From NCBI GenBank assembly GCA_016704525.1, contig JADIZX010000009.1:42625-106624 (forward strand): 64,000 nucleotides of DNA, given 5' to 3'. Below are positions 1,823 through 43,941 of this stretch, piece by piece. This DNA is from Myxococcales bacterium (GTDB lineage Bacteria > Myxococcota_A > Polyangia > Polyangiales > Polyangiaceae). The notes below the pieces were generated by a model. The model searched no databases. It saw only the letters and a list, made by a program, of their open reading frames with translations, and had not been told where the DNA came from. Numbering within the stretch: position 1 is the stretch's first letter; every line of letters starts with the position of its first letter. Position numbers and translations under genes: made by a program.

Positions 1823-3061
1823 TCAGCGGAGCCCGAGCGCTACGCCGACGACCACGCTCCCGCCGACCACGATGATCCACGCGAGCGTCCAGCCGAGCGC
1901 CCGACGCGGCGGAGTGACGGGCCGCTTCGACACGGTCTGCGACACCCGCGACCGGCTCGGGCGCTCGCGATCGGCGTCGCCCGTGCGGCGGCTATTCGGG
2001 GGGCGCGGCGAGAGCGAGGGCTCGGTGGTGCTCGCTTCGGCGGCGAACGGACCGGCGCTCGACGGCGTCGGCCCCGTGCGCTTGGTCTCGGGCACCGGCT
2101 CCTCGGGCGCCGGAGCCGGCGGGGTCTCCGGCGGGAGCGCGGCGCGCTCGGGCACGTCGTCGGGCTCGTCGGGGAAGATCTCGGCGCGCTCGAGCGAGGC
2201 CCGCATGGCGCCGGCCGACGAGTAGCGGTTGTTCGGGTCCTTCGACAGCGCGCGGAGCACGATCGCGGTCACGGCGGGCGAGAGGCCAGGCACCTTCGCC
2301 GCGGGCGAGGGCGGCGGCTCGGTGAGGTGGGCCGTGAGCACGGCGAGCGGCGTCTCCCCGCCGAAGGGCAGGGCGCCGGTGAGCATTTCGTAGAGCATCA
2401 CCCCGCACGCGTAGAGATCGCACCGGCCGTCGAGCTCGTCGCCTTGGGCTTGCTCCGGAGACATGTACTCCGGCGTGCCAAACACCATGTTGAGGGTGGT
2501 GAGGTTGGTCGTCCCGGTGCCGCTGCCGCCGTTGACGATCTTCGAGAGGCCGAAGTCGACGACGGTGGCCCGCTCGGCGGCGTCGACGAGCACGTTGTGC
2601 GGCTTCAGGTCGCGGTGGATCACCCCCTGTCCGTGAGCGCACTCGAGCGCCTCGAGCACCTGCTTGGCGATGGCCACTGCGCGCGCCTCCGGGAGCTTGC
2701 CGTCTGCGATGAGTCGGTCGAGCGGCCGGCCATCGATGCGGGGCAGCGCGAGGCAGAGGAGGGGCACGCCGCCGGCCGGGTTCTCGACCTCGCCGACCTC
2801 GAGGATGCGGCACACGTGAGGCCCTTCGAGGCGGCGCAGGATGGCGCCCTCGCGCATGAAGCGGCCGCGGATCTGCACCTCGCTCGCGAGGTGGGGGTGC
2901 ATGACCTTGAGCGCGACGGACTCGCCGCTCGCGGTATCGCGTGCAGAATACACGACGCCCGTGCCGCCTTCGCCAAGTACGCCTTCGACCTCGTACTTGC
3001 CGAGCACGACCGCGCCCCGCCGGAGGCGCTCTTCGCTGGTGGTGCTCGCCGGGCCGTCCAT
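1823..3061 (-). CDS. Ser/Thr protein kinase with C-terminal transmembrane helix
   Basis: Hanks kinase motifs: GEGGTGVVY glycine loop, VALK, HRDLKPHNVL catalytic loop, DFG, and GTPEYMSPE activation segment. Pro-rich linker and C-terminal TM segment WTLAWIIVVGGSVVVGVALGL. Start placed at the internal Met (MDGPASTT) of the 464-aa ORF. Confidence 0.8.
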   Translation of the reverse strand: MDGPASTTSEERLRRGAVVLGKYEVEGVLGEGGTGVVYSARDTASGESVALKVMHPHLASEVQIRGRFMREGAILRRLEGPHVCRILEVGEVENPAGGVPLLCLALPRIDGRPLDRLIADGKLPEARAVAIAKQVLEALECAHGQGVIHRDLKPHNVLVDAAERATVVDFGLSKIVNGGSGTGTTNLTTLNMVFGTPEYMSPEQAQGDELDGRCDLYACGVMLYEMLTGALPFGGETPLAVLTAHLTEPPPSPAAKVPGLSPAVTAIVLRALSKDPNNRYSSAGAMRASLERAEIFPDEPDDVPERAALPPETPPAPAPEEPVPETKRTGPTPSSAGPFAAEASTTEPSLSPRPPNSRRTGDADRERPSRSRVSQTVSKRPVTPPRRALGWTLAWIIVVGGSVVVGVALGLR

Positions 3062-3273
3062 CGCCGCGGCAGGATACCCGACACGCGAGCGGGCGCGAGC
3101 CTGGCGCTCCGTGCGCCAACGGTGCGTTACCCCGCACCGAGCCTGGTGCGACGCGGGTCGTCCGCAACACGCCGGACGGCGCGGCGAGCCCCGCCTCCGC
3201 CATCGCCGTCCTGCCATCGTCGGGAGTCACGAGACGCCCGGAGGGGACGATCCACCTGACGCGGGGCGCAATC

Positions 3274-5508: not shown

Positions 5509-6459
5509 ATGCGCGCCCTCTTCCTTGCACTGCCGCTGATTCTCGCACCATTCGCCACCTTCGCGTGCTCCAGCGACGATCCGGGCGATTCGGGCACCTC
5601 GCCGACGTCCACGTCCACCACCACGACGCCCGTGCCCTCCGTGCTCCCCGACGGCGCCCCCAACCCCGACGCCACGGCGACGACCGACGGCGGGGGCCCC
5701 GGTCCCGACGGCACGGTGCCCCCGACCGACAGCGGCAACCCGTCCACGCCCGGCGTCGTCGGAGCGAACGGCATCGCCGACTGGGACGCGCTCGGCGACA
5801 AGGCCCAGGTCAAGGTGTTCCGCAGCTTCTTCTTGCACCAGTCGGTGGGCGGCGACCTGGAGGACGGCGCGCAGTTCAACGGCTACAAGTTCGAGTACGC
5901 GACGAGCGGCTCCACGAACCTCAGGCCGGGGCTCAACGGCGGGCTGTTCTCCACCAGCAACGGCAACCCGGCGGGCAAAATCGCCGAGTTTCGCTCGATG
6001 GCGCTGGCCAACAAGTCGAACCTCCGCGTGGCGATCATGAAGTTCGGCTACGCCGACATCGTCGCCGGCAAGGTCGCGGGCGCGCAGACCGCCTACGAGG
6101 CGGCCGTCGCCGCCGTGAAGGCCGAGGGCGTGCGCGTGCTCCACGTCACGCCGCCGTTCGTCTACAACGTGCCCGCAGAGAACGCGCCCAAGCAGGCGAT
6201 GCGCACGTGGATGATGACCACGTTCCCGAACGACATCATCTTCGACCTGCAAGACATCGAGAGCACCGAGCCCGGGAGCGGCACGCGCTGCGAGCGCGGC
6301 GGCTCGTGGGAGATCTGCAACTCGATCCGCTCGACGAGCGGCTGTGCGAGCCTCAATCAGGGCGTCGACTCGGCCTCGGGTCAGGGCCACCTCTGCTACA
6401 CGCACGCCAAGCGCATCTCGAAGGCGTTCCTTTACGCGATCTACCTCGCGGGCAAGTGA
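5509..6459 (+). CDS. Hypothetical lipoprotein with Thr/Pro/Gly-rich linker
   Basis: Lipoprotein signal with lipobox MRALFLALPLILAPFATFAC. Low-complexity TSTSTTTTP linker, then a globular C-terminal domain of unknown family. Confidence 0.6.
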   Translation: MRALFLALPLILAPFATFACSSDDPGDSGTSPTSTSTTTTPVPSVLPDGAPNPDATATTDGGGPGPDGTVPPTDSGNPSTPGVVGANGIADWDALGDKAQVKVFRSFFLHQSVGGDLEDGAQFNGYKFEYATSGSTNLRPGLNGGLFSTSNGNPAGKIAEFRSMALANKSNLRVAIMKFGYADIVAGKVAGAQTAYEAAVAAVKAEGVRVLHVTPPFVYNVPAENAPKQAMRTWMMTTFPNDIIFDLQDIESTEPGSGTRCERGGSWEICNSIRSTSGCASLNQGVDSASGQGHLCYTHAKRISKAFLYAIYLAGK

Positions 6460-6514
6460 GGGCACCCACGCGGGCTGTGGCTCGGCGCGGGAGAGCGCCC
6501 GCCACGCATCGCCT

Positions 6515-7042
6515 TTAGCGCGCACGCGGGAGGGGCACGCGCACCTCGCGACGGGCCGCGCCCGCGTCGGCGACGTCGCTCACGAGGAACGGCATCTCGA
6601 GGCGGCGCTTTACCGGCACGCACACCGCGTGGGTCGCCTCGTCGCACACCACGAGGTCCACGGTGCCAGCCAGGCCGGCCTCGGGGGCGCCGCGTGCGGC
6701 GACCACCCGCACGTCGAACCCACGGGAGACCTCCCGCCCCTTCCCACGCAGCTCGGGCGGCACCTCGGCGAGGCCTTCGCTCGTCGTCCACCTCACGTGA
6801 AAAGGGGCGTCGTCGTTCACCGCCGTTCCCAGCGGCGCCTCCCACGCGACGTGGATGGTCGTCGCGGCGCGCGACGAGATCGTGACGGCCGGCACGACCA
6901 CGCTCACGGCGGCCGCAGGCGGCGGCGGGGATGGGGATGGGGCGCCCGCGTCGGGAGGATGGACGTCGGGCTTGGGGCCCCCGGCGCGCGAGCACCCGAC
7001 GACGAGCGCGAGCACCGCCGCCAGGCCCCGACGCGCCCGCAC
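6515..7042 (-). CDS. Hypothetical lipoprotein, last gene of the kinase-STAND/patatin operon
   Basis: Lipobox LAAVLALVVGCS. Pro-rich linker (PSPSPPPP). Lies 38 bp downstream of the patatin stop on the same strand. Start chosen at the GTG giving VRARRGL; uncertain. Confidence 0.45.
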   Translation of the reverse strand: MRARRGLAAVLALVVGCSRAGGPKPDVHPPDAGAPSPSPPPPAAAVSVVVPAVTISSRAATTIHVAWEAPLGTAVNDDAPFHVRWTTSEGLAEVPPELRGKGREVSRGFDVRVVAARGAPEAGLAGTVDLVVCDEATHAVCVPVKRRLEMPFLVSDVADAGAARREVRVPLPRAR

Positions 7043-7080
7043 GCGCGAGGCGCGCGAACCGCAGAGTGCCGAGCGCGCGA

Positions 7081-8382
7081 TCACGTGCCTAGGGGAATGC
7101 CGAGCGATTTTCGATCCCACAGGCCGCTGTCGCCCCCACCGCCGTCGGGCGCGTGCGTACCGCCGCCGTCGTCCGAGGCGCGCCCGAAGAACTCGAGCAG
7201 CTCGTCACGGCGCGCCTGGGCGTCCGCGCGCCCCATCTCGATGAGCTGCCGGCAGAACGGCCCGTCGAACAGCAGGTAGCTCGCGAGGTCGGCCTCGTCG
7301 CCGCCTCCGATGTCCAGGAGCGAGAAAAGACGCTTCGTAAGTAATGGATTTCCCTGAAACTTTCCCTTCCGCACGTGGACGGCGGCGAGCTTCCCGATGT
7401 CCTCGCTCGGCCTCACCGTGAGCGCCGTCACGTGGCGGTAGGGGCGCGCGCCGCGGCGCTCGGCCTCGACGCTCATCGCTCGCGTGAAGTCGGGCCCGTA
7501 GACCTTCGTGCCGTCGGCGACGACGTGGTTCACGCGGTTCAGCATCTCGATGTCGACGTCGACGTGGTCGAGCAGGAACGCGTTCAGGAGCTTCCCGAGC
7601 AGGAACGCGGCACCGGGCGAGCGCGCGCTCTCCTTGGCCGGCTCGACGACGCCGCGGACCTCACGCGAGCTCGCGATGGCGAAGATGTGGGTCGCGCCGA
7701 GGGCGAGGGCGGGCGCGATGGGCGTGTTCTGGCGGAGCCCTCCGTCGAGGTAGAGGTCGTGATCGATGCGCACCGGCGGGAACAGCAGCGGGATCGCCGC
7801 GCTCGCGAGCGCGTGCACCGGCCCGATGTGCGCCTGGCGGAAGAGGGTCCGCGGGGGCACGACGTCGGGCATCGCGACGTTCGGTGCAGTCTGCACAAAA
7901 ATCACCGTGCGGCCCGTCGCGACCTCGGTCGTCGACACGGTCAGCGCGCGGAGCTTGTTCTTGCGGAGCGAGCGGGCGACGGCGCGCCAGGAGATCTCTC
8001 GCCCGACGAGATCGGCCATCGGGCTCACGTCGAAGAGGCCCGTCCCCGCGCCCCCGCCCATCACCACGCTGGGGAGCCCGGCGAACTGGCGGAGCCCGAA
8101 GCCCAGCACGCGGGTGATCTCGAGCTCGGACCACAGGTGCACGAGCCGGCGCAGGCCTAGCACCGGATCGGCGAGGTGCGCGGCGAGGTAGCACGCGTTG
8201 ATCGCGCCCACGCTGGTGCCAGAGAGCACGTCGACGCGAGGCGGCCCGCCGCGCATCCGCGTGAGCTCCTCGAACACGTAGGAGAGGACGCCCACCTCGT
8301 ACGCGCCGCGGGCGCCGCCGCCCGAGAAGATCATGCCGACGCGCTTCGGCGTGGGCTCGCCCCCGCTGGTGATGCTGGTCAT
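7081..8382 (-). CDS. Patatin-like phospholipase
   Basis: Oxyanion hole GGGARG, nucleophile elbow GTSVG, and catalytic-Asp motif LYLDGGLRQNTP. 433 aa. ATG at 8382-8380 overlaps the upstream TGA at 8381-8379 (ATGA). Confidence 0.85.
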   Translation of the reverse strand: MTSITSGGEPTPKRVGMIFSGGGARGAYEVGVLSYVFEELTRMRGGPPRVDVLSGTSVGAINACYLAAHLADPVLGLRRLVHLWSELEITRVLGFGLRQFAGLPSVVMGGGAGTGLFDVSPMADLVGREISWRAVARSLRKNKLRALTVSTTEVATGRTVIFVQTAPNVAMPDVVPPRTLFRQAHIGPVHALASAAIPLLFPPVRIDHDLYLDGGLRQNTPIAPALALGATHIFAIASSREVRGVVEPAKESARSPGAAFLLGKLLNAFLLDHVDVDIEMLNRVNHVVADGTKVYGPDFTRAMSVEAERRGARPYRHVTALTVRPSEDIGKLAAVHVRKGKFQGNPLLTKRLFSLLDIGGGDEADLASYLLFDGPFCRQLIEMGRADAQARRDELLEFFGRASDDGGGTHAPDGGGGDSGLWDRKSLGIPLGT

Positions 8383-11300
8383 TTCTTCTCCGACGGCGGC
8401 AACGAGCGGGCGCCAAGCATGGCGGTGAGCTCGCTCGGAAGCAGCGCGCTCTGCAAGGTCTGGCGGAAGGGAGCCCCTCGCGTTGGGTCGATCCGCGCGA
8501 CGACCAGCGGCGAGGGCGTGGTGTCGAAGAGCGCGGCCACCATCGAGCGCTGCGAGTAGAGCTTCCGCAGGCGCATGTTCCGGATGGTCTCCATCACGCC
8601 GGTCGCGTAGTCGACGGCGCGCTGTCGCGTGGCGGCCGCCTGGGGGGAGCCCGCGCGCTTCAGCGCGTCGGCGCACAAGGTGCGCACGTCGAGCCCGTAC
8701 TCGCTGCCTTGGAGCGCCTCGACCGCGCCGAGGGCGGTGGTCGCGAGCAGGGTGGCCGAGTGCACCTCGCCCGCGTCGACGCGGGCCGAGGCCTCGATCG
8801 CGAACGCGTAGAAATGATAGGCCACGAGCGCCTGCTTCTCGGCCATCCGCCGGGCCTCGATCGCGAGCTCGATGGCCTTCTGAGGCTCGCGGCGCGCCTG
8901 CGCGATCGCCGCGCCCACGACCAGCCCGTGCGCCCGATCGTAGGCGCTCTCGCTCCTGGTCAGGGCCTCGAGCGCCTCGGCGTGCCAAGCCACCGCCTCT
9001 TCGAGAGCGCCGTTGTCGAGAGCGACCTCGGCGCTCACGAGCAGCGTGTCGGTGCGACCGTCTTTGTCGGCGTAGCGCTCGTGGGCATCGCGCGCGCGCT
9101 GGAGGTAGGCCGCCGCGCGTGGCACGTCGCCGAGGCGCGAGTAGGCGTGCCCGATGTTGGCGAGCGTCTTGGCGAGCTGGAACCGGCCGCCCACGGAGAG
9201 GTCGATTTGGATCGACTCGAACGCGAGCGCGATGGCGTCTTCGTAGCGACCTTGCACGAACATGGCGTAGGCGAGCGCGTTCTTGGCCCGCGCCTCTTGG
9301 CGATGCGCGCCGCTCTTGCGGTAGATCGCGATCGCCTGCACGTAGTCGTCCACGGCCTCGCGCACTCGCCCCACACGACGGAGCAGCACCCCGCGAGAGC
9401 GCAGCGCGTCGGCGCGCAGCCGCGGCGGCACGTTGGCGTTCACGTCGGGGTTCGCGGCGGCGAGCGCGCGGTCGGCCGCCGCGAGCGCCGCCTGCACGTC
9501 GCCGAGCTCGCGCGACAGCTCGCTCGTGAGCGACTCGGCCTCGATCTCCAGCTGAAGGAAGCCGGAGCCGCGGGCGATTTGGGCGGCCTTCCGGGCGATC
9601 GGCAGGCCGTGGGGCAGCCGCCCTTCGTCGAGATCGAAGCGGGCCGTACGGAGGAACGCGAGGCACACGCTTCGAGGCGTACCGACGTGGCGCGCGCACG
9701 CGCGCATGCCCTCGAGCTGCGCGACGCGATCGCGCTTGCGGCCGAGCATCCGGTAGATGCCCTCGAGCGCCTCGTGCGCGACGAGCCTTCGCGGGTCGTC
9801 GATGGTGAGCTGGAGGAGGGCGCGCTTGTAATAACGGACGGCGAGCGGCGTCTGGTAGGTCGTGCGCGCCGCGGTGGCCGCCTCGATGTAGTAGTGCGCC
9901 GCGCGCTCGCCGTCGTCGCCGCGGGCAAAATGGCTGGCCACGATCGCCGCGGAGACACCCCTCGCGAGCGGGGTGCCGGTGAGGTGCTCGCCGAGCGCCT
10001 TGTGCATTCGGGCTCGCGCGGTGGCAGAGAGCGCTCCGTAGGCGACGTCGCGCGTGAGCGGGTGGCGGAAGTCGAGGTCGCTCCCGCGCCGATCGCAGAG
10101 CCCCCGCTCGCAGAGGCGGGCGGCGGGCTCGGTGGCCACGCTCGGGACGGAGCTCCCCTCAGCGAGCAACCGCTCCAGGTCGGGGACGGCGAGCGGACCG
10201 CCCGCGATCGCGAGCCAGTCCACGATGCGCCGCTCACGAGGCGGGAGCTCCTCGATGCGGTCGGCGAGGAGCTGCTCGAGCGTCTGGGGGAGGAAGAACT
10301 CGCGCTCGCCCTCCTCGGCGCGGACCAGGGCATCCTCCCGGATCTCGAGGACGCCCCGCTCGAGGAGCGCGTCGACGAGCTCGAGCAAGAAGAACGGATT
10401 GCCCCCCACGCGCGGGAGCAGCTCGGCGCACACCTCGCGGACCCCCTCCTTCACGCCGATGCGTGTCTCGACGAGCCGCACCTGCTGGTCGCCCGAGAGG
10501 CCGTGCAGCTCGATGCGCACCTTGCCCTCGAGGAGGGGGGCGAGACGCTCGTCGGGTCGGGTCACGAGGACCACCAAAATAGGCAGTGGATCCGTGGATT
10601 TCAGCAGATCCGCGAGGACGTCGAGGCTCGGCTTGTCGGCCCACTGCAGGCCCTCGGCGACGAGCACGACGGGGCCATCGGCGGCGAACGCGCCGAGGAG
10701 GTTGCGCACGCTCGTGACGAGCAGGCGCTTCTGGTAAGCCGCGTCGTCGTTGTCGCCCTGTCCAGACGGGCGGTTCGTCACGAGCTCGGCGAGCCGCGCG
10801 ACCATGGGGTTGTCCCCCTTCGCGCCGGGTCCGCCCGCGGGCCCGAGCACCTCGACGACCTCCGCGTAGCTCTCCTCGCCCGTGAGCGCGGCGGCCGATC
10901 GGACGAGCTCGGCGATCGTCGCGAACGGCACCTCCATCCGCACCGGCGAGCACTCGGCGCGCACGATCCGCGCGTTCGGCGGCAGCTCGGCGAGGAAGCT
11001 GTGGACGAGCGCGGTCTTGCCGATACCGAGCTCACCGACGACGGCGCGCGCGCTCATCTTGTCGTGGCTCGTGGCGTTCATCGCCGCGTGGTACGCCGCG
11101 ACCAGCTCGGCCTTCTCCGCGTCCCGCCCGACCAAATCGTGCGGCGACGCCCCGAGCTCCGACTCGCGCTCCTCGCGCGAGAGGCTGCGCTCGAGCGTGT
11201 AGATGCGCATCGTCGGCGGGAGGTTTGGGACGTCGGTGTCGCTCGGGAAGTCGAGGCTCGGCGCGTCGCCCCAGCGAAACTCCCGGCGCACGAGGCGGTA

Positions 11301-12848
11301 GAGCCCGCCCGCGACCCACGTGGTGTTCGGCGGGGTCTTCCGGCTGAGCGTGTCGGCCAGGTAGGTGACCGGATCGTGCAACGTGTACCGGACGAGGTTC
11401 CCGCTCGCGTCGCGGATGCCCGAGGCGATCCCGCGGACCAGCGTCATCGTGGCCGACACGGGCGCGGGGAGATCGTCCGCCAGCGCGGCGAGGGCCTCGT
11501 GGGTCTCCAAGGCCAGCCACGCGGAGTCGGAGGGGGCGCGCGCGTGCCGCGCGGTGAGGCCTACGACGGCGCGGGCCTGGAAGTCGGAGGTCCACTGCCA
11601 CCGCGCACCGCGCTTGTAGGCCATATCGTCGAGCATCGGGCGGAGCCGCAGGATCGCCCGCGCGAGGCGCGCGCGTTCGCCTTCGGTGAGCACCTGCTGC
11701 GGGGCGAGCTCGAGCGTCACGAGCGCGATGTGCCGCACCTCGCGGTGCTCGCCGCCGCGCTTGTTGGGCCTCGACGACGCGGGCGCGCGATCGCTCGCGA
11801 TCGCCACCGGCGCCGCGGGGTTCGTGAGCTCGGGCCCAGGCGCGGGGGACCCGCCGCGATCGCCGCGACGATCGCTCGGCCGCGGGAGGAACGCGTGGAT
11901 CGTCGCCTCGAGGGCCGCGCCGTCCACCAGCTCTTGGCGCGACAGGAGCGCTCGACCGATGGCCGCCACGAGCTCCCTCCCCGTCGCGTAGCGGCCCTCG
12001 GGCCGCGGCGCGAGGAGCTTCATCACGATCTGCTCGAGCTCGGCGGGCAGATCCATCGCGAACGTGCTCGGCGGCTCGACGCGGCCCGTGCGGACCACCT
12101 CGAGGAGCGCCGTCCCGGTGGCGCTGCCATGGAGCGGCCGGCCGGAGAGGCACTCCCAGAGGATGACGCCGAGCGAGTAGAGATCGCTGCGGCGGTCGAC
12201 CCGCTCCCCGCGGGCCTGCTCGGGCGACATGTACCCGTACTTGCCCTTGATGACCCCCTGCTCGTCCTGCAGGAAGCGCGCGCTCGCGATGCCAAAATCC
12301 GCAATCTTTACGCTGCCGTCGTAGGAGAGCAGCACGTTCTGGGGCGACACGTCGCGGTGAACGATCTCGAGCGACGCGCCGCCGTCGTCTTTCTTCTCGT
12401 GCGCGTAGTGGAGGCCCTTGGCCACCTCGGCGATGACGTAGGCGCTCACCCAGGGCGGCAGGCGCACGCCGGCCGCGCGGGCGGCCGCGACGATCATGCC
12501 GAAGTCCGGGCCCTCGACGTACTCCATCGCGAGGATGTGCCCCTCGGCCCCCTCGTTCGAGAAGTCGTAGACCTGCACCACGTTCGGGTGGTTCAGGCGG
12601 GTGGCGAGCTGCGCCTCGTCGATGAACATCGTGCGAAAGCGCCGCGACGCCCCGAACGAGGGCAGGATGCGCTTGACGACGACGATCTTCGAGGTGCCCT
12701 CGGCGCCGCTCTTGCGCGCCAGGAACACCTCGGCCATGCCGCCCGCGCCGAGGCGCCGAAGCACGTCGTACTGCGCCAACTTTTCGGGGAAAGATTCAGT
12801 CACGGCGTGCGCGGTGTCGATGGACGGGCTTGGCCCCGTAGCCCCCAC
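8379..12848 (-). CDS. Multidomain Ser/Thr kinase, cyclase-homology-like region, STAND/AAA+ NTPase and TPR protein
   Basis: N-terminal Hanks kinase (GAGGMAEVF, VVVK, HRDVSPQNVLL, DFG, GYMSPE). Middle region resembles a class III cyclase homology domain (possibly degenerate). P-loop GELGIGKTAL with NB-ARC/MalT-like spacing. Long C-terminal TPR-like helical repeats. 1489 aa. The first 200 bp of the initially parsed ORF was discounted because it overlaps the patatin start. Confidence 0.85.
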   Translation of the reverse strand: MGATGPSPSIDTAHAVTESFPEKLAQYDVLRRLGAGGMAEVFLARKSGAEGTSKIVVVKRILPSFGASRRFRTMFIDEAQLATRLNHPNVVQVYDFSNEGAEGHILAMEYVEGPDFGMIVAAARAAGVRLPPWVSAYVIAEVAKGLHYAHEKKDDGGASLEIVHRDVSPQNVLLSYDGSVKIADFGIASARFLQDEQGVIKGKYGYMSPEQARGERVDRRSDLYSLGVILWECLSGRPLHGSATGTALLEVVRTGRVEPPSTFAMDLPAELEQIVMKLLAPRPEGRYATGRELVAAIGRALLSRQELVDGAALEATIHAFLPRPSDRRGDRGGSPAPGPELTNPAAPVAIASDRAPASSRPNKRGGEHREVRHIALVTLELAPQQVLTEGERARLARAILRLRPMLDDMAYKRGARWQWTSDFQARAVVGLTARHARAPSDSAWLALETHEALAALADDLPAPVSATMTLVRGIASGIRDASGNLVRYTLHDPVTYLADTLSRKTPPNTTWVAGGLYRLVRREFRWGDAPSLDFPSDTDVPNLPPTMRIYTLERSLSREERESELGASPHDLVGRDAEKAELVAAYHAAMNATSHDKMSARAVVGELGIGKTALVHSFLAELPPNARIVRAECSPVRMEVPFATIAELVRSAAALTGEESYAEVVEVLGPAGGPGAKGDNPMVARLAELVTNRPSGQGDNDDAAYQKRLLVTSVRNLLGAFAADGPVVLVAEGLQWADKPSLDVLADLLKSTDPLPILVVLVTRPDERLAPLLEGKVRIELHGLSGDQQVRLVETRIGVKEGVREVCAELLPRVGGNPFFLLELVDALLERGVLEIREDALVRAEEGEREFFLPQTLEQLLADRIEELPPRERRIVDWLAIAGGPLAVPDLERLLAEGSSVPSVATEPAARLCERGLCDRRGSDLDFRHPLTRDVAYGALSATARARMHKALGEHLTGTPLARGVSAAIVASHFARGDDGERAAHYYIEAATAARTTYQTPLAVRYYKRALLQLTIDDPRRLVAHEALEGIYRMLGRKRDRVAQLEGMRACARHVGTPRSVCLAFLRTARFDLDEGRLPHGLPIARKAAQIARGSGFLQLEIEAESLTSELSRELGDVQAALAAADRALAAANPDVNANVPPRLRADALRSRGVLLRRVGRVREAVDDYVQAIAIYRKSGAHRQEARAKNALAYAMFVQGRYEDAIALAFESIQIDLSVGGRFQLAKTLANIGHAYSRLGDVPRAAAYLQRARDAHERYADKDGRTDTLLVSAEVALDNGALEEAVAWHAEALEALTRSESAYDRAHGLVVGAAIAQARREPQKAIELAIEARRMAEKQALVAYHFYAFAIEASARVDAGEVHSATLLATTALGAVEALQGSEYGLDVRTLCADALKRAGSPQAAATRQRAVDYATGVMETIRNMRLRKLYSQRSMVAALFDTTPSPLVVARIDPTRGAPFRQTLQSALLPSELTAMLGARSLPPSEKK

Positions 12849-13019
12849 CCCGGGAAAGTGCTGTCACCAGCGCCGCCCAGTGTACCCGCGTTCACGAGGG
12901 CGGCGCTCAGGAAAACCACGCGCGGAGGGGCGACGCGAGGGCGACGCAGGGGCGAGCCACGCGGCGATCGCCGCCCGCGACGGTTTCACGCTCGCCTCGG
13001 CTGGTGATGCAGGATATTT

Positions 13020-14747
13020 TTGAGCCTGATGGAAGCCTTGCCCCCGCCGACGGCTGCCGGTCTGCTCGCAAAGACGCCGCTGGCGCACCTTTTCACCTAC
13101 GTGATGGAGCGACGCCTCTCGGGCTCGCTCGTCCTCCGCCGCCCCGACGGCTGGGGCGGGGCCATCGTCTTCTTCGAGGGCCTGCCCCGAAAGGCCGACG
13201 CGCCGCCAGAGATCGCCCCGTCCGATCCCGGGGCGCTGGCAGCGCTCGAGGCGCAGGTGCAGTGCCTCTTCACCTTCCCGCCGGCCACGCAGTTCGCGTT
13301 CTACGAGGGGCGCGACACGCTGCAAGAGCGCGGGCCTGGCTTCGTCGAGGCCGATCCCCTGCGGCTCTTGTGGGCCGGGGTCCGCATGAACCCCTCGTGG
13401 GATCACGCGAACGCGGCGCTCGCGCGCCTGCAGACCGTGGCGATCCGCCTGAAGGCGTCCGCGGCCCCCGAGCGGTGCGGTTTCGACGCGAGCGAGCTGC
13501 AGATCGTGGAGCTGCTGCGGCATCGCCCGCTGTTCCTCGGCGACCTCACCGCGGCGCGCCTGGTCCCGCCGGCCCTGGCTCACTTGTTCGTCTATTTCAT
13601 GCTGATCACGAAGCAGCTCGACCTGCTCGAGGCGCCGCCGGGGATGAAAGCACCTCCGATCGTGCCGCTGGGGCCGCAGGCGCACCCGCAGCAGCCGCCG
13701 CAGCCCTCGTTTCACCCGCACGCCGCGCATGCCCCACACGCGCATGCCCAGCACGCCGCCCCGCCTCCCGGCATGAGCCCGATGCCCCAGGCCTACGCGG
13801 TCCCCGGCGCGCCGCCCGCGACGCGTCAGCACCCGCCTTCGGACGCGCCGTTCAACCCGTTCTCCGACCTCTCGCTTGGCCCGCCCCCGCCCGTCCCGGC
13901 GACCCCGTTCGCGCCCACCTCGAGCCCGAAGCTCCCGCCGAACGGCGCGGCCGGCGTGGCGGCGGCCCCCGACGCGCCACGCAAGCCGACGCTGAGCGAC
14001 GCTGACAGCGCCCTGTGGGACAAGGTCGTCGCCAAGGCGGCCTCGATCGACGAAGAGGACCACTACCAGGCGCTCGGGATCGCGCCGGCGACCCTGAAGG
14101 AAGACATCCAGAAGGCCTTCTTCGCCCTCGCCAAGACGTGGCACCCGGACAAGCTGCCGTCGACGCTCGGCGAGCTCCGCGACGCGTGCAGCAAGGTGTT
14201 CGCGCGCATCACCGAGGCGCACGCGGTCCTGACCGACGTGGCCCGGCGCGAGGAGTACGACAAGAACCTGCGCGACGGCACGGGCGGCGCGGCCGAGCAG
14301 GCGGAGGTCCAGCGCGCCCTCGAGGCGGCCAACAATTTCCAGAAGGCCCTCGTCTACTTGAAGCGCAACGACACCGCGACGTGCGAAGAGCTCGCGCGGA
14401 AGGCGCTCGAGGCCGACTCGACGCAGGCCGACTACCTCGCGCTCGTCACCTGGCTCGACGCCCAGAAGCCCCACAACCTGAACTTCGAGCGCACCCGCGA
14501 GCTCATTCTCAAGCTCGACAACGCGATCGCCATGAACGGCAGCTGCGAGCGCGCCCACTTCTATCGAGGCATGCTCCACAAGCGCACGGAGAACCCGAAG
14601 CAGGCCCTGAAGGACTTCAAGCGCGCGGTGGAGCTGAACCCCCACAACCTCGACGCCGCCCGCGAAATTCGCCTCCACGGCATGAGGCAGCCGTCCAAGG
14701 GAGAAGAGGGCGTCGGGGGGCTCCTGGGCCGCTTCTTCAAGAAGTAG
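13020..14747 (+). CDS. DUF4388-like N-terminal domain, Pro/His-rich linker, J-domain (DnaJ) and TPR protein
   Basis: J-domain with HPD motif (HYQALGIAPATLKEDIQKAFFALAKTWHPDKLP). C-terminal TPR-like repeats. N-terminal domain typical of myxobacterial DUF4388 proteins. Confidence 0.75.
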   Translation: MSLMEALPPPTAAGLLAKTPLAHLFTYVMERRLSGSLVLRRPDGWGGAIVFFEGLPRKADAPPEIAPSDPGALAALEAQVQCLFTFPPATQFAFYEGRDTLQERGPGFVEADPLRLLWAGVRMNPSWDHANAALARLQTVAIRLKASAAPERCGFDASELQIVELLRHRPLFLGDLTAARLVPPALAHLFVYFMLITKQLDLLEAPPGMKAPPIVPLGPQAHPQQPPQPSFHPHAAHAPHAHAQHAAPPPGMSPMPQAYAVPGAPPATRQHPPSDAPFNPFSDLSLGPPPPVPATPFAPTSSPKLPPNGAAGVAAAPDAPRKPTLSDADSALWDKVVAKAASIDEEDHYQALGIAPATLKEDIQKAFFALAKTWHPDKLPSTLGELRDACSKVFARITEAHAVLTDVARREEYDKNLRDGTGGAAEQAEVQRALEAANNFQKALVYLKRNDTATCEELARKALEADSTQADYLALVTWLDAQKPHNLNFERTRELILKLDNAIAMNGSCERAHFYRGMLHKRTENPKQALKDFKRAVELNPHNLDAAREIRLHGMRQPSKGEEGVGGLLGRFFKK

Positions 14748-17168: not shown

Positions 17169-17948
17169 CTACTGCGCGGCCCAGCCGCCGTCCATGTTCC
17201 AGGCCACGCCGCGCACCTGGCTCGCGGCGTCGCTGCACAAAAACCCGACCAGCTGCGCCAGCTGCGACGTAGTCACGAAGTCGCCCGACGGCTGCTTCTC
17301 GCAGAGCAGGGCGCGCTTCGCGGTCTCCTTGTCGGTGTCGTCCTTCGCCGCGCGCGCGTCGACCTGCGCCTCGACGAGCGGCGTGAGCACCCAGCCGGGG
17401 CACACCGCGTTGCACGTCACGCCGGTGCGCGCGGTCTCGAGCGCCGTCACCTTCGTGAGCCCCACGAGGCCGTGCTTGGCGGCCACGTACGCGGCCTTCT
17501 GCGGCGAGGCCACGAGGCCGTGCACCGACGCGACGTTGACGATTCGCCCCCAGTCGTTCCGCTTCATGTGGGGCAGCGCGAGCCGCGTCGTGTGGAACGC
17601 GGAGGTGAGGTTCACCGCGAGGACCGAGTCCCAGCAGTCGACCGGGAAGTCCTCCACGCTCGCCACGTGCTGGATGCCGGCGTTGTTCACGAGCACGTCG
17701 ATGCCGCCGAACTCGACCTCGGCGTACCGCGCGAGGTCCTCGATGTCGGACGCGCGGCTCATGTCGGCGCCGTGATACCCCACGCGCGCGCCGGGCCGCG
17801 CCGCGGCCTCCACCTCGCGCCGCGGCCGGCTCTCTTCGCCGAAGCCGTTCAGCACCACGTGCGCGCCGTGCGCCGCCAGCACCCTCGCGATGCCAAGGCC
17901 AATGCCGCTGGTCGAGCCCGTGACGACCGCTGTCTTCCCGGATAGCAT
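17169..17948 (-). CDS. bdhA: 3-hydroxybutyrate dehydrogenase (SDR family)
   Basis: TGSTSGIG Rossmann motif, NNAG, and YxxxK (YVAAKHG). Strong similarity to BdhA-type SDRs. 259 aa. Confidence 0.8.
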   Translation of the reverse strand: MLSGKTAVVTGSTSGIGLGIARVLAAHGAHVVLNGFGEESRPRREVEAAARPGARVGYHGADMSRASDIEDLARYAEVEFGGIDVLVNNAGIQHVASVEDFPVDCWDSVLAVNLTSAFHTTRLALPHMKRNDWGRIVNVASVHGLVASPQKAAYVAAKHGLVGLTKVTALETARTGVTCNAVCPGWVLTPLVEAQVDARAAKDDTDKETAKRALLCEKQPSGDFVTTSQLAQLVGFLCSDAASQVRGVAWNMDGGWAAQ

Positions 17949-17953
17949 GCAGC

Positions 17954-19237
17954 TTACACCCTTTCCTGAGCGTGGTCCCTACCGCTGCGCGCACCGACGA
18001 AATCGCGCACGATGGGGTAGATCGACTCGCGCCATCGCCGCCCGGAGAACACTCCGTAGTGGCCACACCCGGCCGCCACGTGGTGGCGCCGGTGCTCGTC
18101 GGGCACGCCCGCGCACAGCGCGTGGGCGGCCTGGGTCTGCCCGAGGCCGGCGATGTCGTCGTCGGCGCCTTCGATGGTGAGCAGCGCCGTATCGCGGATG
18201 GCGGCGGGCCTGACGCGCTCGCCGGCCACGTCCCACGTGCCCCGCGCGAGCGCGAACTCCTGGAACACGAGCCGCACGGTCTCCAGGTAATAGGGCGCGT
18301 CCATGTCGAGCACGGCGTTGTAGTCGTCGTAGAAGCGCTCGTGCGACGCGCGCTTCGCGTCGCCGTCGCTCCCCGTGAGGTGCCCGAGCCAGTACTCGAC
18401 GTGGGCGTCGATGTGCCGCGACGGGTTCATCGCCACGAACGCGGAGAGCTGCAAAAACCCCGGGTAAACGCGGCGCCCGCGGCCCGGATAGCGCCCCGGG
18501 ACGGTCTTGATGAGGGTGCGCTCGAACCACGCCAGCGATCGCTCGGTCGCGAGCCGGTTCACCTCGGTCGGGTTCCGGCGCGCGTCGACCGGGCCGCCCA
18601 TGAGGGTGAGGGAGCGGGGCGTGGCCTCGCCGGCCTGCGCGAGCAGGGCGATCGCGGCGAGCACCGGCACGGTGGGCTGGCACACGGCGACGACGTGGAG
18701 TGTTGCCGCGCCGAGCAGACGCACGAGCCGCTGCACCGTGTGCACGTAGTCGTCGAGGCTGAACGACCCCTGCGCCACGGGCACCTCGCGGGCGCAGACC
18801 CAGTCGGTGACGTAGACGTCGTGGTCGGCGAGCAGCGAGCGCACCGTGTCGCGCAAGAGCGTCGCGTGGTGCCCCGAGAGCGGGGCGCAGAGCAGCACCT
18901 TCGGCTGGGCGCGGAGGCGCTCCGCCAGCGCGGGGTCGGCGGTCTCGCGGACGAACCGCACGAGCCGGCAGAACGGCTCGGCGTGCACGACCTCCTCGGT
19001 GACGCGCACCTCGCCGGCGGCGGCGCCGCCGACCGAGACGCGGTCGAGGCCGAACGCGGGCTTCTCGTAGCGCCTCGTCAGCCGGTGGAGCAGCGCGTGC
19101 CCGGCCCCGACCACGCGCGCGCCGGGCACATGAGAGAGCGGGCTCTTCTCGTGGGTGAGGAGGCGGGCGGTAGCGAAAGAGACGCGCGCCACCGGGTCGA
19201 GGCACGTGCGCTGGAGCTCATGAAGGCGGTAGAGCAT
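17954..19237 (-). CDS. phaZ: Intracellular poly(3-hydroxybutyrate) depolymerase (PhaZ family)
   Basis: ~427-aa protein matching the intracellular PHB depolymerase family (Ralstonia PhaZ1 type) along its length. Sits directly upstream of bdhA on the same strand. Confidence 0.7.
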   Translation of the reverse strand: MLYRLHELQRTCLDPVARVSFATARLLTHEKSPLSHVPGARVVGAGHALLHRLTRRYEKPAFGLDRVSVGGAAAGEVRVTEEVVHAEPFCRLVRFVRETADPALAERLRAQPKVLLCAPLSGHHATLLRDTVRSLLADHDVYVTDWVCAREVPVAQGSFSLDDYVHTVQRLVRLLGAATLHVVAVCQPTVPVLAAIALLAQAGEATPRSLTLMGGPVDARRNPTEVNRLATERSLAWFERTLIKTVPGRYPGRGRRVYPGFLQLSAFVAMNPSRHIDAHVEYWLGHLTGSDGDAKRASHERFYDDYNAVLDMDAPYYLETVRLVFQEFALARGTWDVAGERVRPAAIRDTALLTIEGADDDIAGLGQTQAAHALCAGVPDEHRRHHVAAGCGHYGVFSGRRWRESIYPIVRDFVGARSGRDHAQERV

Positions 19238-19419
19238 GGTCTGGGTGGCGCGGGGTCTCGCGCAGAACCCAGTATGTGCACCTGCAACAATTTGTGCAAC
19301 GCAATATTTTTGCGCGCCTTCACAGACAGGGTCCGTTCATCACGTGCGCACGCACGTGTGCTGCGGCGCACAAGCACAGCGGCGGCCGCGCGTCGGCGCG
19401 GCCGCCTCCGCGACCGGCC

Positions 19420-20841: not shown

Positions 20842-22056
20842 TCACGTGGTGGGCAGGGGCCCCGGGCTCCAAATGTGCACGTCCTGGGCGACGCCCTTCA
20901 GGCGCTGCGCGCCGAGGTCCTCGCACGCGACGCCGGTCGCGTCGACGAACGCCTGGCTCACCAGGAGCGGCCGGTCGAGCGCACGACACAACCCCTGGAT
21001 ACGGCTGGCCAGGTTCACCGCCGGCCCGATCACAGTGAAGTCGAGGCGGTCGGGGCCGCCGATGTTCCCGTACATCACCTCGCCGAGGTGGATCGACGTT
21101 CCGAACTCGAGGAGCGCGCTCCCGGCGCGCGCGGCGTTCTTCGCCTGCGCGCGCTCGAAGGCCTCTCGCGCCGCGGCGAGGGCGGCGAGGCACGCGCGGC
21201 GCTCGTCGCCCACCGAAGAGCGGAACACCGCGAGCACCGCGTCGCCGACGAACTTCAGCACCTCGCCACCGTGCGCCTGCACCGCGCCCACGACGCAGTC
21301 GAAGTAGTCGTTCAGCAGCGCCAGGAGCTCGGCGCTCGCGAGGCGGTCGGAGAGGACCGTGAAGTCGCGCAAATCGGTGAACGAGACCGCCGCGTGGATG
21401 GGCTCGCCGTCGCCGCGCTTCACCGCGCCTCGCAGCACCCGCGCGCCCGCGTCGGCGCCGAGGTAGGTCGTGAGGAGGGTGCGCGCGATGCGGGCCATCA
21501 CGTGGGCGTCGAGGATGGGCTCGAGCCACCCGACGGTCGACAGCACGAGCGCGAGCGCCTCGTCGGTGAAGCCGCCCGGCGCGCGCGTGGCCACGCTCAC
21601 CGCGCCGAACCCCGCGCTCACCGTGTGGCGCGTGCCCGCGATCAGGTAGTCGGTGAAGCCGTCCGCCCGGAGATCACCGACGATCGCGAAGTCGGCGGGG
21701 CACGCGGGGTCGGCGAGCGGCCGGCGGATCACGGCGTGGGTGCCGAGCTGGATGCTGCGGAGCGGGCTCGCGGCGAACTCGGCGCCAAGGACCGCAGCCC
21801 ACGCGCGGGCGATCTCGCGGACGGGCCGGCCCTCGCCCTCCCACACGAAGTTCCACGCGGCGACCTGCGGGTGCAGCGTGGGGATGACATAGAACGCCCG
21901 GTCGACGGGGACACCGTCGGCGCGAAGCGCGCGCACGTACCCCTCGATCAGCGCCGCGGTCGCGGGGGTCGCGCGAGCCTCGCCGTGCAAGTAGTGGAGG
22001 GTCGCCCCAGGCTCGACGCTGCCGAGCGGCGGCAACGGGACGTCGTAGATGGCCAT
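20842..22056 (-). CDS. Class III adenylate/guanylate cyclase with N-terminal domain of unknown function
   Basis: C-terminal cyclase homology domain (VSFTDLRDFTVLSD, VLKFVGDAVLAVF, IHLGEVMYGNIGGPDRLDFTVIGPAVNLASRIQ). 404 aa. Confidence 0.8.
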   Translation of the reverse strand: MAIYDVPLPPLGSVEPGATLHYLHGEARATPATAALIEGYVRALRADGVPVDRAFYVIPTLHPQVAAWNFVWEGEGRPVREIARAWAAVLGAEFAASPLRSIQLGTHAVIRRPLADPACPADFAIVGDLRADGFTDYLIAGTRHTVSAGFGAVSVATRAPGGFTDEALALVLSTVGWLEPILDAHVMARIARTLLTTYLGADAGARVLRGAVKRGDGEPIHAAVSFTDLRDFTVLSDRLASAELLALLNDYFDCVVGAVQAHGGEVLKFVGDAVLAVFRSSVGDERRACLAALAAAREAFERAQAKNAARAGSALLEFGTSIHLGEVMYGNIGGPDRLDFTVIGPAVNLASRIQGLCRALDRPLLVSQAFVDATGVACEDLGAQRLKGVAQDVHIWSPGPLPTT

Positions 22057-22268
22057 CGGGCCGATGCTACCTCACCGCCCCCGCGCCGTGCCGCCGCGCG
22101 ATCGCGTGAAGCCGCGAGGAGGGCCGGCGAGGCCTCGTGCAAGCCCCGACACAGCGTCCGCCGAGGCCGCCGGGCGAGTGTGGGCTTGCGCTCGCGGCGG
22201 GGAGTGACCATTCATCGCGAAGACCTGCCGCGTCCTCGAGGCGCGACGTACCCCAAGAGACGAAGGCG

Positions 22269-41190: not shown

Positions 41191-41280
41191 GTGCTCTAGG
41201 CAGCCAGGGGTGGGCTGGTGTAACCTCGGCCCGGCCACTCGGCCCTCCGAGCCACGCCCACGCCACCCAGAAAGAGCTCT

Positions 41281-42522
41281 GTGATCTCCTCGAAACTCCC
41301 CCGCACCAAAGAAGACCGCGCGATCTTCTTCGACGAAAAGGCCTGGCTGAACCGCTGGGACCGGCTGACCGAGGAGGGGAAGAAGCTCAAGCGCTGCAAG
41401 CGCTGCCTGTACGGCGAGGATCTCCCGTCCATCAAGTTCGACGAGCTCGGCGTCTGCAACTACTGCGCGATGCACGACAAGCTCGAGGCCGAGTACCAGA
41501 CCGGCTCCGAGGCGGCTTCGCGCCGGTTCTCGGAGATCGTGCAGAGCATCAAGGACGAGGGCCGGGGAAAACCCTACGATCTGGTGGTCGGGGTGAGCGG
41601 CGGCGCCGATTCGTCGTACCTCATCCACCTCGCGAAGGAGCGCGGCCTCCGCCCGCTCGCTGTTCACTACGACAACACGTGGAACTCCACCATCGCGGTG
41701 GAGAACATCCATAGCGTGCTGAAGAAGCACGACGTGGAGCTCAACACCTACGTGGTCGACAACGAGGAGTACGACGAGATTTACCGCGCGTTCCTGCGCT
41801 CTGGCACGATCGACCTCGACTGCCCGACCGATCTCGCCCTCGCGACCGTGCTCAATCGCGTCGCTGAAGAGGTGGGGACGCGCTTCATCTTCGAGGGCCA
41901 CTCCTTCCAGAGCGAGGGCCTGTTCCCCATCGGCTGGCTCTACATGGACGCTCGCTACGTCCAGAGCGTCGTCACGCGCCATGGAAACGTGAAGCTCGAC
42001 ACGTATCCGAGCCTCTGGTTGAAAGACCAACTCCGCTGGATGCTCGCGCGGCGAATCAGGAAGGTACGACCGCTCTGGTATCTCCGGTACGACAAGCCGG
42101 CCGTCAAGGAGATGCTCATCCGAGACTACGGCTGGAAGTGGTACGGCGGTCACCACCTCGAGAACCGGATCACCTCTTTCTGGCACACCTACTTCGCCCC
42201 CCGCAGGTGGAGCATCGACGCCCGCATCGTCGGGCACTCCGCGCACGTTCGCTCGGGCCTCCTGGGCCGCGACGAGGCGGCGGCCGATATCGAGGGACCT
42301 CCGCCTTGCTCCATGGACCAAGTGTTCATGATCATGAAGCGCTGGGGGTTCGACCAGGCCCAATTCGAAGACTTGATGACGCTTCCGTTCCACGGGTATC
42401 GTGAATACGACACGTACAAGACCGTCTTCGAGAGGGGGCGCCCGTTCTTCTACATGCTCGCCAAGCTCGAGCTCATTCCGATGAGCTTCTACGTAAAGTA
42501 CACGTCGAAGGACAACATCTGA
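41281..42522 (+). CDS. N-acetyl-sugar amidotransferase (PP-loop ATPase family, LPS/glycan biosynthesis)
   Basis: Zn-ribbon CKRCLYGEDLP...CNYC and PP-loop SGGADSS, matching the N-acetyl sugar amidotransferase family along its length. Markedly lower GC and different codon usage from its neighbours. Confidence 0.8.
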   Translation: MISSKLPRTKEDRAIFFDEKAWLNRWDRLTEEGKKLKRCKRCLYGEDLPSIKFDELGVCNYCAMHDKLEAEYQTGSEAASRRFSEIVQSIKDEGRGKPYDLVVGVSGGADSSYLIHLAKERGLRPLAVHYDNTWNSTIAVENIHSVLKKHDVELNTYVVDNEEYDEIYRAFLRSGTIDLDCPTDLALATVLNRVAEEVGTRFIFEGHSFQSEGLFPIGWLYMDARYVQSVVTRHGNVKLDTYPSLWLKDQLRWMLARRIRKVRPLWYLRYDKPAVKEMLIRDYGWKWYGGHHLENRITSFWHTYFAPRRWSIDARIVGHSAHVRSGLLGRDEAAADIEGPPPCSMDQVFMIMKRWGFDQAQFEDLMTLPFHGYREYDTYKTVFERGRPFFYMLAKLELIPMSFYVKYTSKDNI

Positions 42523-42654
42523 GGAACGAGATCTCGTGAAGTTGGGTTGGTCCTATTCCCACATGGAGTCGACGCAGATCGCCTGCGTCGAGCAGCTCGC
42601 GTCCACGGGGACCGTGCGCGACGGCGCTGCGCAGCGCGATTCGAGAGGTAGCAA

Positions 42655-43662
42655 GTGAGCGACGCAGGTCTTTCTGAACACTGGAGCGCGGACCGCCTCA
42701 AGCTTCCGTCGCAAATCGCCCCCGACGACTACGTGAAGGCCCTCCTCGCGTCCGTGCCCGAGGAACGATACGACCACTATCGGCTCTACCCTGCGACGGA
42801 CAAGAAGGGCTGGCAGGAGTTCCGGCGAGAGCGCCTGAGAGACGCGCTCGCCGACGAGGAGACCGTCTTCTTCGGCGACATCGTAGATGGCTTGGCGCTG
42901 GCCGTTGGCTGCAAGCTGCCCAGCTGGGACCTGAACCACTTCGGCTTCCCCATCGCGAAGATCACCTGGATGGTCTCGTACAACTTGGCGGGCGCCTCGC
43001 GAGTCATGGCGCGCCTCATGGACGAGTGCATGGCGTTCCTCGCGAGCCGCGGCGTCAAGCTCATCGTCACGAGGGTGGACGGGGACGATCTCGCGAACCT
43101 CCACCTGCTCGAAGATCAGGGGTATCGGTACTACGAGAACTCGCTCTGGTCCGTCATGGACTACTCGAAGATGCCGGCGTCGTTCGAGCGTCCCAACGTT
43201 CGCTTCATCGAAGACGCGGACATCGAGCGGGTGCTCGATCTCGCGGGGCGCTACCAGTACTCGCGCAGCCACTACTACTGCGACGAGCGCATGGATCGCG
43301 CCCGGATCGACGACATGTACCGGGAGTGGTTCAAGACCAGCCTTCGGCGCAAAGAGCCCGTCATGGTCGTCCTCGACGAGGGCGAGGTCATCGGGGGCAT
43401 CGTCTACCGGTTCCAGCCTTCGCTCTCGAAGCATCTGGGCCACAACTACGGCCAGCCCCACCTCATGATGATCGAGCCCCGCTCGCGCGGGAAGGGGCTC
43501 GGCATGGCGATGTTCCAGGGGAGCATGTACCTCATGTCGACCCTCGGCTCCACGTGGCTCGACACGGGCCTCGCGAGCAGGAATCACCCCTCCGCGCGCA
43601 CCACGATCACCTCGGGCTTCCGCCCCGTCTACGAGGAGATCACCTTCCACCGTTGGCTCTGA
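42655..43662 (+). CDS. GNAT-family N-acetyltransferase with extra N-terminal domain
   Basis: GNAT motif A (IGGIVYRF...PRSRGKGLGMAMFQGSM). 335 aa. Lower GC like the upstream amidotransferase. Confidence 0.65.
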   Translation: MSDAGLSEHWSADRLKLPSQIAPDDYVKALLASVPEERYDHYRLYPATDKKGWQEFRRERLRDALADEETVFFGDIVDGLALAVGCKLPSWDLNHFGFPIAKITWMVSYNLAGASRVMARLMDECMAFLASRGVKLIVTRVDGDDLANLHLLEDQGYRYYENSLWSVMDYSKMPASFERPNVRFIEDADIERVLDLAGRYQYSRSHYYCDERMDRARIDDMYREWFKTSLRRKEPVMVVLDEGEVIGGIVYRFQPSLSKHLGHNYGQPHLMMIEPRSRGKGLGMAMFQGSMYLMSTLGSTWLDTGLASRNHPSARTTITSGFRPVYEEITFHRWL

Positions 43663-43941
43663 GCGGCGGCAGCTCGCGAGGTGGCGCGGCTCCGCGCGGG
43701 CGTGGCGGCATCGGCCCGTGTATCAACGGGCTTAGCAGCCCGCGGCGGGCTCGTCAGCCCACCTGCCCCGCGCACTCGACGCGAAAATCCCCCGAGCCGT
43801 CGAACCACACGTCGAAGATGGGGAGGCCATTTCCAAGGACGAACAATGTACGTGCAAGTTGCACGGACGCGAGCTGACTGATCTCTTCGGTGAGCGCCGC
43901 CGCTAGCTTCGCCTCCACGAGGCCCAGGCGTATCAACAGCT

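Follow-up and report, generated by a model that had tools for sequence, protein, structure and literature searches.

We analysed a 64,000-nt stretch of DNA from an uncultured Myxococcales bacterium of the family Polyangiaceae (assembly GCA_016704525.1, contig JADIZX010000009.1, positions 42,625 to 106,624 of the forward strand), referred to below as the window. Our subject is two adjacent minus-strand genes, one encoding a giant protein that combines a Hanks-type Ser/Thr kinase, a cyclase-homology domain (CHD), a STAND NTPase and a TPR region, and one encoding a patatin-like phospholipase. Our preferred reading, which we regard as an even call, is that the pair is a vertically inherited signalling unit of the Polyangiales, in which a PknK-like STAND kinase would control a cytoplasmic phospholipase in lipid remodelling or homeostasis, and not in immunity. 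It builds on the architecture of the giant protein, the state of the catalytic motifs, the adjacency and overlap of the two genes, their co-divergence and their non-defence surroundings.

Conservation strongly supports the link between the two genes. Labilithrix, Pendulispora and metagenome-assembled genomes (MAGs) of Polyangiaceae contain many full-length homologues of each protein, and the two sets repeatedly lie on contigs of equal length. A scan with the patatin alignment, keeping one genome per species, returned 80 loci, and tblastn was run on these together with five loci fetched earlier. The counted set comprises the 57 loci whose patatin reaches an identity of about 45% or more and whose upstream sequence is long enough; they represent Polyangiaceae, Sorangium, Polyangium, Labilithrix and Sandaracinaceae. 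In all 57, the giant gene lies directly upstream of the patatin gene on the same strand, and a kinase-based look-up adds Pendulispora to the carriers of the pair. No upstream match to the giant protein was found in 27 loci, 26 of which have a patatin of 39–50% identity; at the remaining one (L071, patatin 51%), the roughly 4.2 kb of upstream DNA is shorter than the giant gene itself.

The two proteins have also diverged together. Across 37 loci, the identity of the patatin tracks that of every domain in the giant protein (correlation r 0.89–0.92), and the pair occurs in every complete genome that was matched, namely Labilithrix luteola, Pendulispora rubella, two Sorangium strains and a Polyangiaceae chromosome. 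In Sorangium, Sandaracinaceae and locus L038, the flanking genes are entirely different and the pair is still together. We take these data as strong evidence for functional coupling and vertical inheritance of the pair. The functional linkage had been proposed in an earlier sequence-only reading of the region, and the conserved neighbourhood agrees with it.

The two genes and a third, encoding a small lipoprotein, are successive open reading frames with coding-type third-position G+C contents (GC3) of 0.88–0.93, in a window of about 72% G+C; the GC3 of the giant gene is 0.93 over its entire length. Their coordinates, and those of the domains discussed below, are given in Table 1. The giant protein has 1489 amino acids (aa) when read from the first GTG at 12848, and 1474 aa from an alternative GTG 15 codons later (12803), which is the start chosen by gene callers in identical contigs. 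Contigs with 100% identity at the protein level across the locus (tblastn) belong to the MAGs GCA_035433285.1 and GCA_963852875.1 and to a wastewater metagenome. In GCA_963852875.1 (L003, 5532–10004), the patatin is identical and the giant gene is interrupted by two stop codons and annotated as a pair of genes, of 568 and 542 aa. An error of assembly or consensus is the probable explanation, a pseudogene a possible one. A consensus scan for promoters and terminators over 6200–13200 found 0 promoters and 1 terminator-like site, which is on the wrong strand and below shuffle expectation.

Table 1. Features of the operon, in window coordinates.
Feature	Position	Strand	Basis and remarks
Giant STAND Ser/Thr kinase gene	8379..12848	minus	Open reading frame list, translation, full-length homologues at 59–94% identity
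Hanks-type kinase domain, aa 27–288	11985..12770	minus	Pfam PF00069
Predicted pseudo-cyclase, class III cyclase-homology fold, aa ~368–560	11169..11747	minus	Catalytic residue set absent
STAND nucleotide-binding oligomerisation module (NOD), aa ~572–1000	9849..11135	minus	AAA_16, TIGR03903, motifs
TPR sensor region, aa ~1001–1445, then non-conserved C-terminal tail	8514..9848	minus	Pfam, conservation profile
ATGA stop/start overlap, giant gene TGA and patatin ATG	8379..8382	minus	Sequence
Patatin-like phospholipase gene	7081..8382	minus	433 aa; PF01734; homologues at 69–100% identity
Small lipoprotein gene	6515..7084	minus	189 aa from GTG 7084, or ~175 aa from GTG 7042

The stop codon of the giant gene and the start codon of the patatin gene share four nucleotides, which suggests translational coupling. 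Such an overlap is the most ordinary operon junction in bacteria. Labilithrix luteola and Pendulispora rubella have the pair adjacent with the identical 4-nt overlap, and an overlap of this kind is seen in 34 of the 57 counted loci, as ATGA or GTGA and in one case as TTGA; the other 23 have short gaps, whose lengths were set by a start-codon heuristic. The overlap described earlier is thus real, and the obligate co-translation drawn from it is too strong a claim.

At the N terminus of the giant protein, the Pkinase profile PF00069 matches aa 27–288 (E 1e-36; 127 bits, threshold 31.7). Among 31 diverse relatives aligned at identities down to 28% (alignment A3), K59, E78, D166, N171 and DFG184-186 are invariant, the invariance of E78 and N171 being read from this alignment alone. 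The window kinase also has an SPE208 motif. The profile, the Lys, the Glu, the Asp of HRD, the Asn and the Asp of DFG are all those of a Hanks kinase; the Lys of the catalytic loop is missing. The loop reads HRDVSPQN (aa 164–171, window 12341–12364), Ser168 occupying the position that Lys has in the canonical HRDxKxxN. None of the 31 diverse family members departs from this Ser, nor does any copy among the fetched loci (L001–L085), where the loop of the family is HRDVSP[QPAN]N and occasionally HRDISPxN. Other Hanks kinases of the same loci and of the window have HRD[LI]KPxN, and the HRDVSPxN loop is specific to the giant-protein family among the fetched loci. Two ordinary Hanks kinases with the canonical HRDLKPxN are found elsewhere in the window, at 1823–3226 (minus strand) and at about 50359–51153 (plus strand); a large kinome is typical of myxobacteria.

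The kinase had been regarded as the input domain of the protein. Because it is placed N-terminal to the NTPase, in the same position as in PknK, it is more likely to be the output of the STAND switch.

The domain between the kinase and the NTPase has a class III cyclase-homology fold that is hard to see by sequence. The window protein has no PF00211 match at E <=0.1 in Pfam, and searches of Pfam and NCBIfam with the whole protein and with aa 355–580 did not detect a cyclase domain. A phmmer search against PDB sequences returned no cyclase, just a chance match at E 1.3, and hhalign of the middle-domain family against a three-sequence cyclase alignment gave no meaningful alignment, both profiles being shallow. 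With the middle domain as query, phmmer found just 94 matches among 1.84 billion representative proteins, nearly all at the same position within same-architecture proteins of about 1400–1500 aa, and reached no stand-alone cyclases in that set. The connection is made by distant relatives, 6 of 31 of which match PF00211 at E <=0.01 (best 6e-8); in a patatin-linked Sandaracinaceae orthologue, the same profile scores 19.8 bits, below the gathering threshold of 21.9. With Pfam, these bridges and the fold taken together, the order of kinase, CHD, STAND and TPR domains that had been read from the sequence, including this elusive CHD, proves correct.

Relatives with recognisable cyclase motifs include P0292 (GDLQGFS) and P0297 (GELTGFT), and the catalytic register was read through these motif-keeping relatives in a sequence alignment, with no structural superposition. 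In this register, the column of the first metal-binding Asp holds E380 in the window, E, D or K in near relatives, and mostly Arg among the orthologues. The substrate-specifying Lys corresponds to Q418 or W419 and the transition-state Asn to T496 or Y497, and the Arg column holds T501 in the window clade, Arg being kept in several relatives ('AERLA'). Close to the position of the second metal lies D422, an Asp whose conservation does not extend beyond the close clade. A class III cyclase in the same window (20842–22071) served as an internal control, and its FTDLRDFT, KFVGDAV and AVNLASR motifs are all intact. Lacking the catalytic set, the middle domain reads as a catalytically dead cyclase. 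CHDs are obligate dimers, and the dead cyclase is most likely a dimerisation or nucleotide-binding hinge. The control cyclase is a separate 409-aa protein on the minus strand, whose closest PDB entries are photoactivated adenylyl cyclases (E 2e-20) and whose N-terminal 210 aa have no assignment.

The NTPase that follows is matched by AAA_16 (PF13191) at aa 572–760 (E 2e-17, 64.6 bits against 32.6), with weak NACHT and AAA_22 matches. It has a Walker A motif (GELGIGKT605-612), a Walker B-like motif (LVAEGLQWAD, with LQWAD at 734-738) and a GxP-type motif (GGNPF815-819), in which G605, G608, G610, K611, D738, G816 and P818 are invariant in the 31-relative alignment. A P-loop with Walker A and B motifs, a GxP motif and C-terminal repeats are the features of a STAND NTPase, and all of them are present. 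In the TPR region, Pfam finds TPR_12, TPR_1 and TPR_10 at aa ~1145–1258, and TPR_MalT is detected in 17 of the 31 relatives. Mean identity over 37 loci is 57% for the TPR region and 55% for the NOD, so this putative sensor is as conserved as the other domains and not hypervariable.

The partner protein matches the Patatin profile PF01734 over aa 18–226 (E 6e-30, 105 bits against 27.7). The oxyanion motif GGGARG21-26, the nucleophile motif GTS57VG and the catalytic Asp of D213GG are all invariant in 21 orthologues; profile and motifs together identify a patatin with an intact Ser-Asp dyad. We found no signal-like or transmembrane-like segment in it, and it is predicted to be cytoplasmic. Its C-terminal 200 residues are conserved and have no assigned domain. 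Against NF041079, the model of the CBASS lipases, the patatin scores 40.4 bits, far from the cut-off of 200, and Pfam detects no cyclic-nucleotide-binding domain in it. The resemblance to CapV that had been suggested is limited to the generic fold.

From these features, we infer a direction of control, a substrate and a physiological role as follows, in what we see as the most economical model, patterned on the STAND paradigm and on PknK. The TPR sensor would bind a conserved intracellular ligand or partner, upon which the NOD would pass from the ADP to the ATP state and oligomerise. The pseudo-cyclase and the NOD would then bring kinase domains together for trans-activation. Finally, the kinase would phosphorylate the patatin, or the TPR scaffold would hold or release it, switching the hydrolysis of phospholipids or of lipid stores on or off.

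Several points weigh against this proposal. That the patatin is a substrate of the kinase or a ligand of the TPR region is something we infer. The family-wide replacement of the loop Lys by Ser168 means that the kinase may be weak or unconventional, and most of the evidence derives from MAGs. Known immune and cell-death systems, too, are built on the combination of a STAND NTPase and a patatin. Relatives at 30–45% identity are not linked to a patatin, including members with the best-kept cyclase motifs, and the giant protein can evidently work without one.

The absence of the patatin from distant relatives therefore indicates that the partnership marks one orthologous group within the Polyangiales and not the architecture as such. 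Of the eight distant relatives that were checked, two overlap the gene downstream, and in two more a same-strand gene of no known function follows closely; the others have convergent genes after the giant gene, or nothing on the available DNA. At 30–40% identity, one distant relative (L086, 461–5994) has a 4-nt overlap with a DHH/DHHA1 phosphoesterase gene, and another (L089, 1–10414) comes immediately behind TamB and TamA and runs into an ABC-type ATPase gene, with which it overlaps. As a lead, this hints at a sensor-kinase with different, "swappable" downstream enzymes in other lineages.

An alternative that shares much with our preferred reading is an endogenous, NLR-like switch for cell death or lysis in multicellular myxobacteria, in which a vertically inherited STAND sensor licenses the phospholipase in development, kin conflict or stress. 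It fits the vertical inheritance, the joint presence of STAND and patatin and a cytoplasmic patatin with an intact dyad, and fungal NLRs with patatin domains provide a precedent. However, co-expression from one operon at a housekeeping locus suits homeostatic control equally well. The sequence does not separate such a switch from the lipid-homeostasis unit that we prefer, and we consider the switch unlikely. We also think unlikely a broader version of it, a licensed lipase whose STAND sensor would gate the patatin through the kinase, and not through fusion or a messenger, and so bring about regulated developmental or stress lysis or large-scale lipid remodelling. Here the dead cyclase would be a nucleotide-sensing dimerisation hinge, and the loop Ser would mark a dedicated kinase-substrate pair.

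The two genes could instead be mere operon neighbours, a general signalling kinase co-transcribed with a lipase with which it has no specific interaction. That 4-nt overlaps are common, that the overlap is lost in 23 of 57 loci and that distant relatives of the kinase have no patatin would all be expected in this case. The adjacency in 57 of 57 loci, maintained down to a patatin identity of about 45% and within differing flanks, makes such an accident decidedly unlikely in our view.

Defence was the role first proposed for the pair: in an anti-phage or abortive-infection system, the STAND-TPR protein would sense a phage component and unleash a membrane-destroying patatin. A STAND NTPase with a lipid-hydrolysing effector is known immune logic, and PADLOC matches the giant protein to PD-T4-6, mad6 and MkoA and, weakly, the patatin to 'Effector phospholipase' models. 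The giant-protein matches are confined to the kinase domain, however, and an ordinary neighbouring kinase outscores the giant protein on the same models. PADLOC found no defence system among ten neighbouring proteins within about 10 kb, where its matches were likewise generic (the ordinary kinase to PD-T4-6, the canonical cyclase to PycC). The neighbours gave no CD-NTase or other CBASS match.

The genomic setting also speaks against defence. In the window clade and Labilithrix, the flanks hold DnaJ-TPR, aldo-keto reductase and PhyH genes, and in Labilithrix also PFK. The NAD-dependent DNA ligase gene ligA lies downstream, past the lipoprotein gene, and in Pendulispora it overlaps the patatin stop. 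In the window itself, the DnaJ-TPR gene is divergent and begins upstream of the operon at 13008, and two genes without assignment converge on the operon from the downstream side. With matches at the level of single domains, housekeeping neighbours, co-divergence, occurrence in five families, presence in every complete genome examined and a TPR sensor that is not hypervariable, the locus does not look like a defence system or island, and we judge an anti-phage role highly unlikely. The sequence-only reading had kept a lipid-remodelling module as its fallback, to be preferred over defence if the pair held a conserved core position beside housekeeping genes, and this is the position it holds.

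A second-messenger relay, in which a cyclic nucleotide made by the CHD would activate the patatin as in the CapV type of CBASS, is scarcely credible: the class III fold and the conservation of D422 in the close clade are in its favour, but the first metal Asp varies (E/D/K/R), the substrate Lys, transition-state Asn and Arg are absent, PF00211 finds no match, and the patatin has neither the score of a CBASS lipase (40 versus 200 bits) nor a domain to bind the nucleotide.

The third gene of the operon is less firmly attached. Its product was correctly recognised as a lipoprotein: a lipobox, VVGC28-31, follows a basic and then hydrophobic N-terminus, and its Cys is invariant in 43 homologues. 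The start is ambiguous. The reported 38-nt gap to the patatin gene applies to GTG 7042 only; GTG 7084, the start that gene callers pick, gives a GTGA overlap with the patatin stop. Behind the lipobox come a Pro/Ala linker and then about 125 residues forming an Ig-like beta-sandwich, in which two more invariant Cys (C147, C155) lie in VVCDxxTHAVCVPVKR. The protein is lineage-restricted, with only 57 homologues in 5.8 billion proteins, none of them named or with a domain, bar one stray NHL-repeat match. The best Foldseek match of an AlphaFold2 model (pLDDT 83) is part of PDB 7djl ('quenching protein'), followed weakly by pilus chaperones. We take 7djl to be plant SOQ1, whose C-terminal domain has reportedly been likened to DsbD-alpha. 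The Cys pair of the modelled domain possibly hints at a periplasmic thiol-redox role, which we note as an unproven lead.

We considered the lipoprotein as a core part of the module and rejected it. By tblastn, its gene occurs in 14 loci, all of the window clade or Labilithrix-like; the loci of Sorangium, Sandaracinaceae and Pendulispora lack it, and in Labilithrix luteola another gene intervenes. It is probably a syntenic neighbour in the closer clade only, outside the core module.

Two other parts of the window deserve mention. About 5 kb from the pair, at 17169–19336 on the minus strand, a PHB depolymerase gene (PHB_depo_C, E 1e-87) is accompanied by a short-chain dehydrogenase gene, and the arrangement is syntenic in the closest MAGs. 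It provides a storage-lipid context, which may or may not be relevant to the pair. Further away, 42001–44000 has a G+C content of 0.64 versus about 0.72 and covers a 432-aa open reading frame without assignment (41224–42522) and one for a GNAT acetyltransferase (42652–43662); this may be a small acquired segment.

One of the closest known systems is PknK of Mycobacterium tuberculosis, a soluble STAND Ser/Thr kinase. Its phosphorylation target VirS regulates the mymA cell-envelope operon, and PknK is thereby linked to the control of cell-envelope and lipid genes (PMC4381067, PMC4601284). PknK belongs to the MalT subfamily and shares with the window protein its solubility, the N-terminal Hanks kinase, the STAND NTPase and a C-terminal helical-repeat sensor; one source even labels P0118, a homologue of the window protein, 'PknK'. 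Unlike PknK, the window family has an AAA_16-type NOD and the atypical loop HRDVSPQN; the likeness described here is one of architecture. PknK is not known to have a CHD or a co-operonic patatin.

The nearest NCBIfam model is TIGR03903, the 'TOMM system kinase/cyclase fusion protein', which by its name and the position of its match resembles the window protein in having a kinase, a cyclase domain, an AAA ATPase and repeats. It matches aa 567–1012 at E 5e-60, with 203.5 bits, well short of the cut-off of 705.75, and its alignment to the window protein leaves out the cyclase part of the model. Among the neighbours scanned, there are no biosynthesis genes of the TOMM (thiazole/oxazole-modified microcin) type. 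The mycobacterial CHD-ATPase-LuxR proteins Rv0386, Rv1358 and Rv2488c differ in that their output is a LuxR DNA-binding domain and not a kinase, and they have no patatin partner; Rv0386 is an active cyclase (PMC3466318). A Pseudomonas aeruginosa 'class III adenylyl cyclase-like ATP-binding protein' (PDB 6yii) is grouped with these known CHD-STAND regulators.

On the side of the lipase, CapV and other defence patatins share the fold, the Ser-Asp dyad and a position beside the gene of a regulator. CapV, however, is switched on by a cyclic oligonucleotide that a CD-NTase synthesises, whereas the pair described here has no CD-NTase and is inherited vertically at a housekeeping locus; neither its NF041079 score nor its neighbours place this patatin in the CapV type. 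Fungal and bacterial NLR-like STAND-patatin proteins likewise place a patatin-type lipase under the control of a STAND NTPase with a TPR sensor. In these, NTPase and patatin are parts of one fused protein, encoded by genes that are typically variable and patchy, whereas the patatin described here has a gene of its own, the effector position is taken by a kinase and a pseudo-cyclase, and conservation is core-like.

Kinase-CHD-STAND-TPR fusions (TIGR03903), STAND kinases (PknK) and CHD-STAND regulators (the Rv0386 relatives and 6yii) are thus already known. A search of the open literature found no kinase-STAND-patatin pair, HRDVSP loop or description of TIGR03903. What appears undescribed is the conserved and often coupled partnership with a patatin across a myxobacterial order, the constrained dead cyclase and the family-wide loop Ser.

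For the prediction of defence systems, the pair is a caution, as a STAND NTPase and a patatin alone do not imply immunity. The CHD, which has apparently lost catalysis and is nonetheless strongly constrained between kinase and NOD, offers an example of a pseudo-enzyme as a structural or allosteric part. More broadly, the signals and direct targets of the widespread PknK-type STAND kinases are largely unknown, and here the genome itself names a likely target in the adjoining patatin. The partnership spans at least five Polyangiales families, and with a likely target in view, the question of what a bacterial STAND kinase phosphorylates, and why, becomes a testable one.

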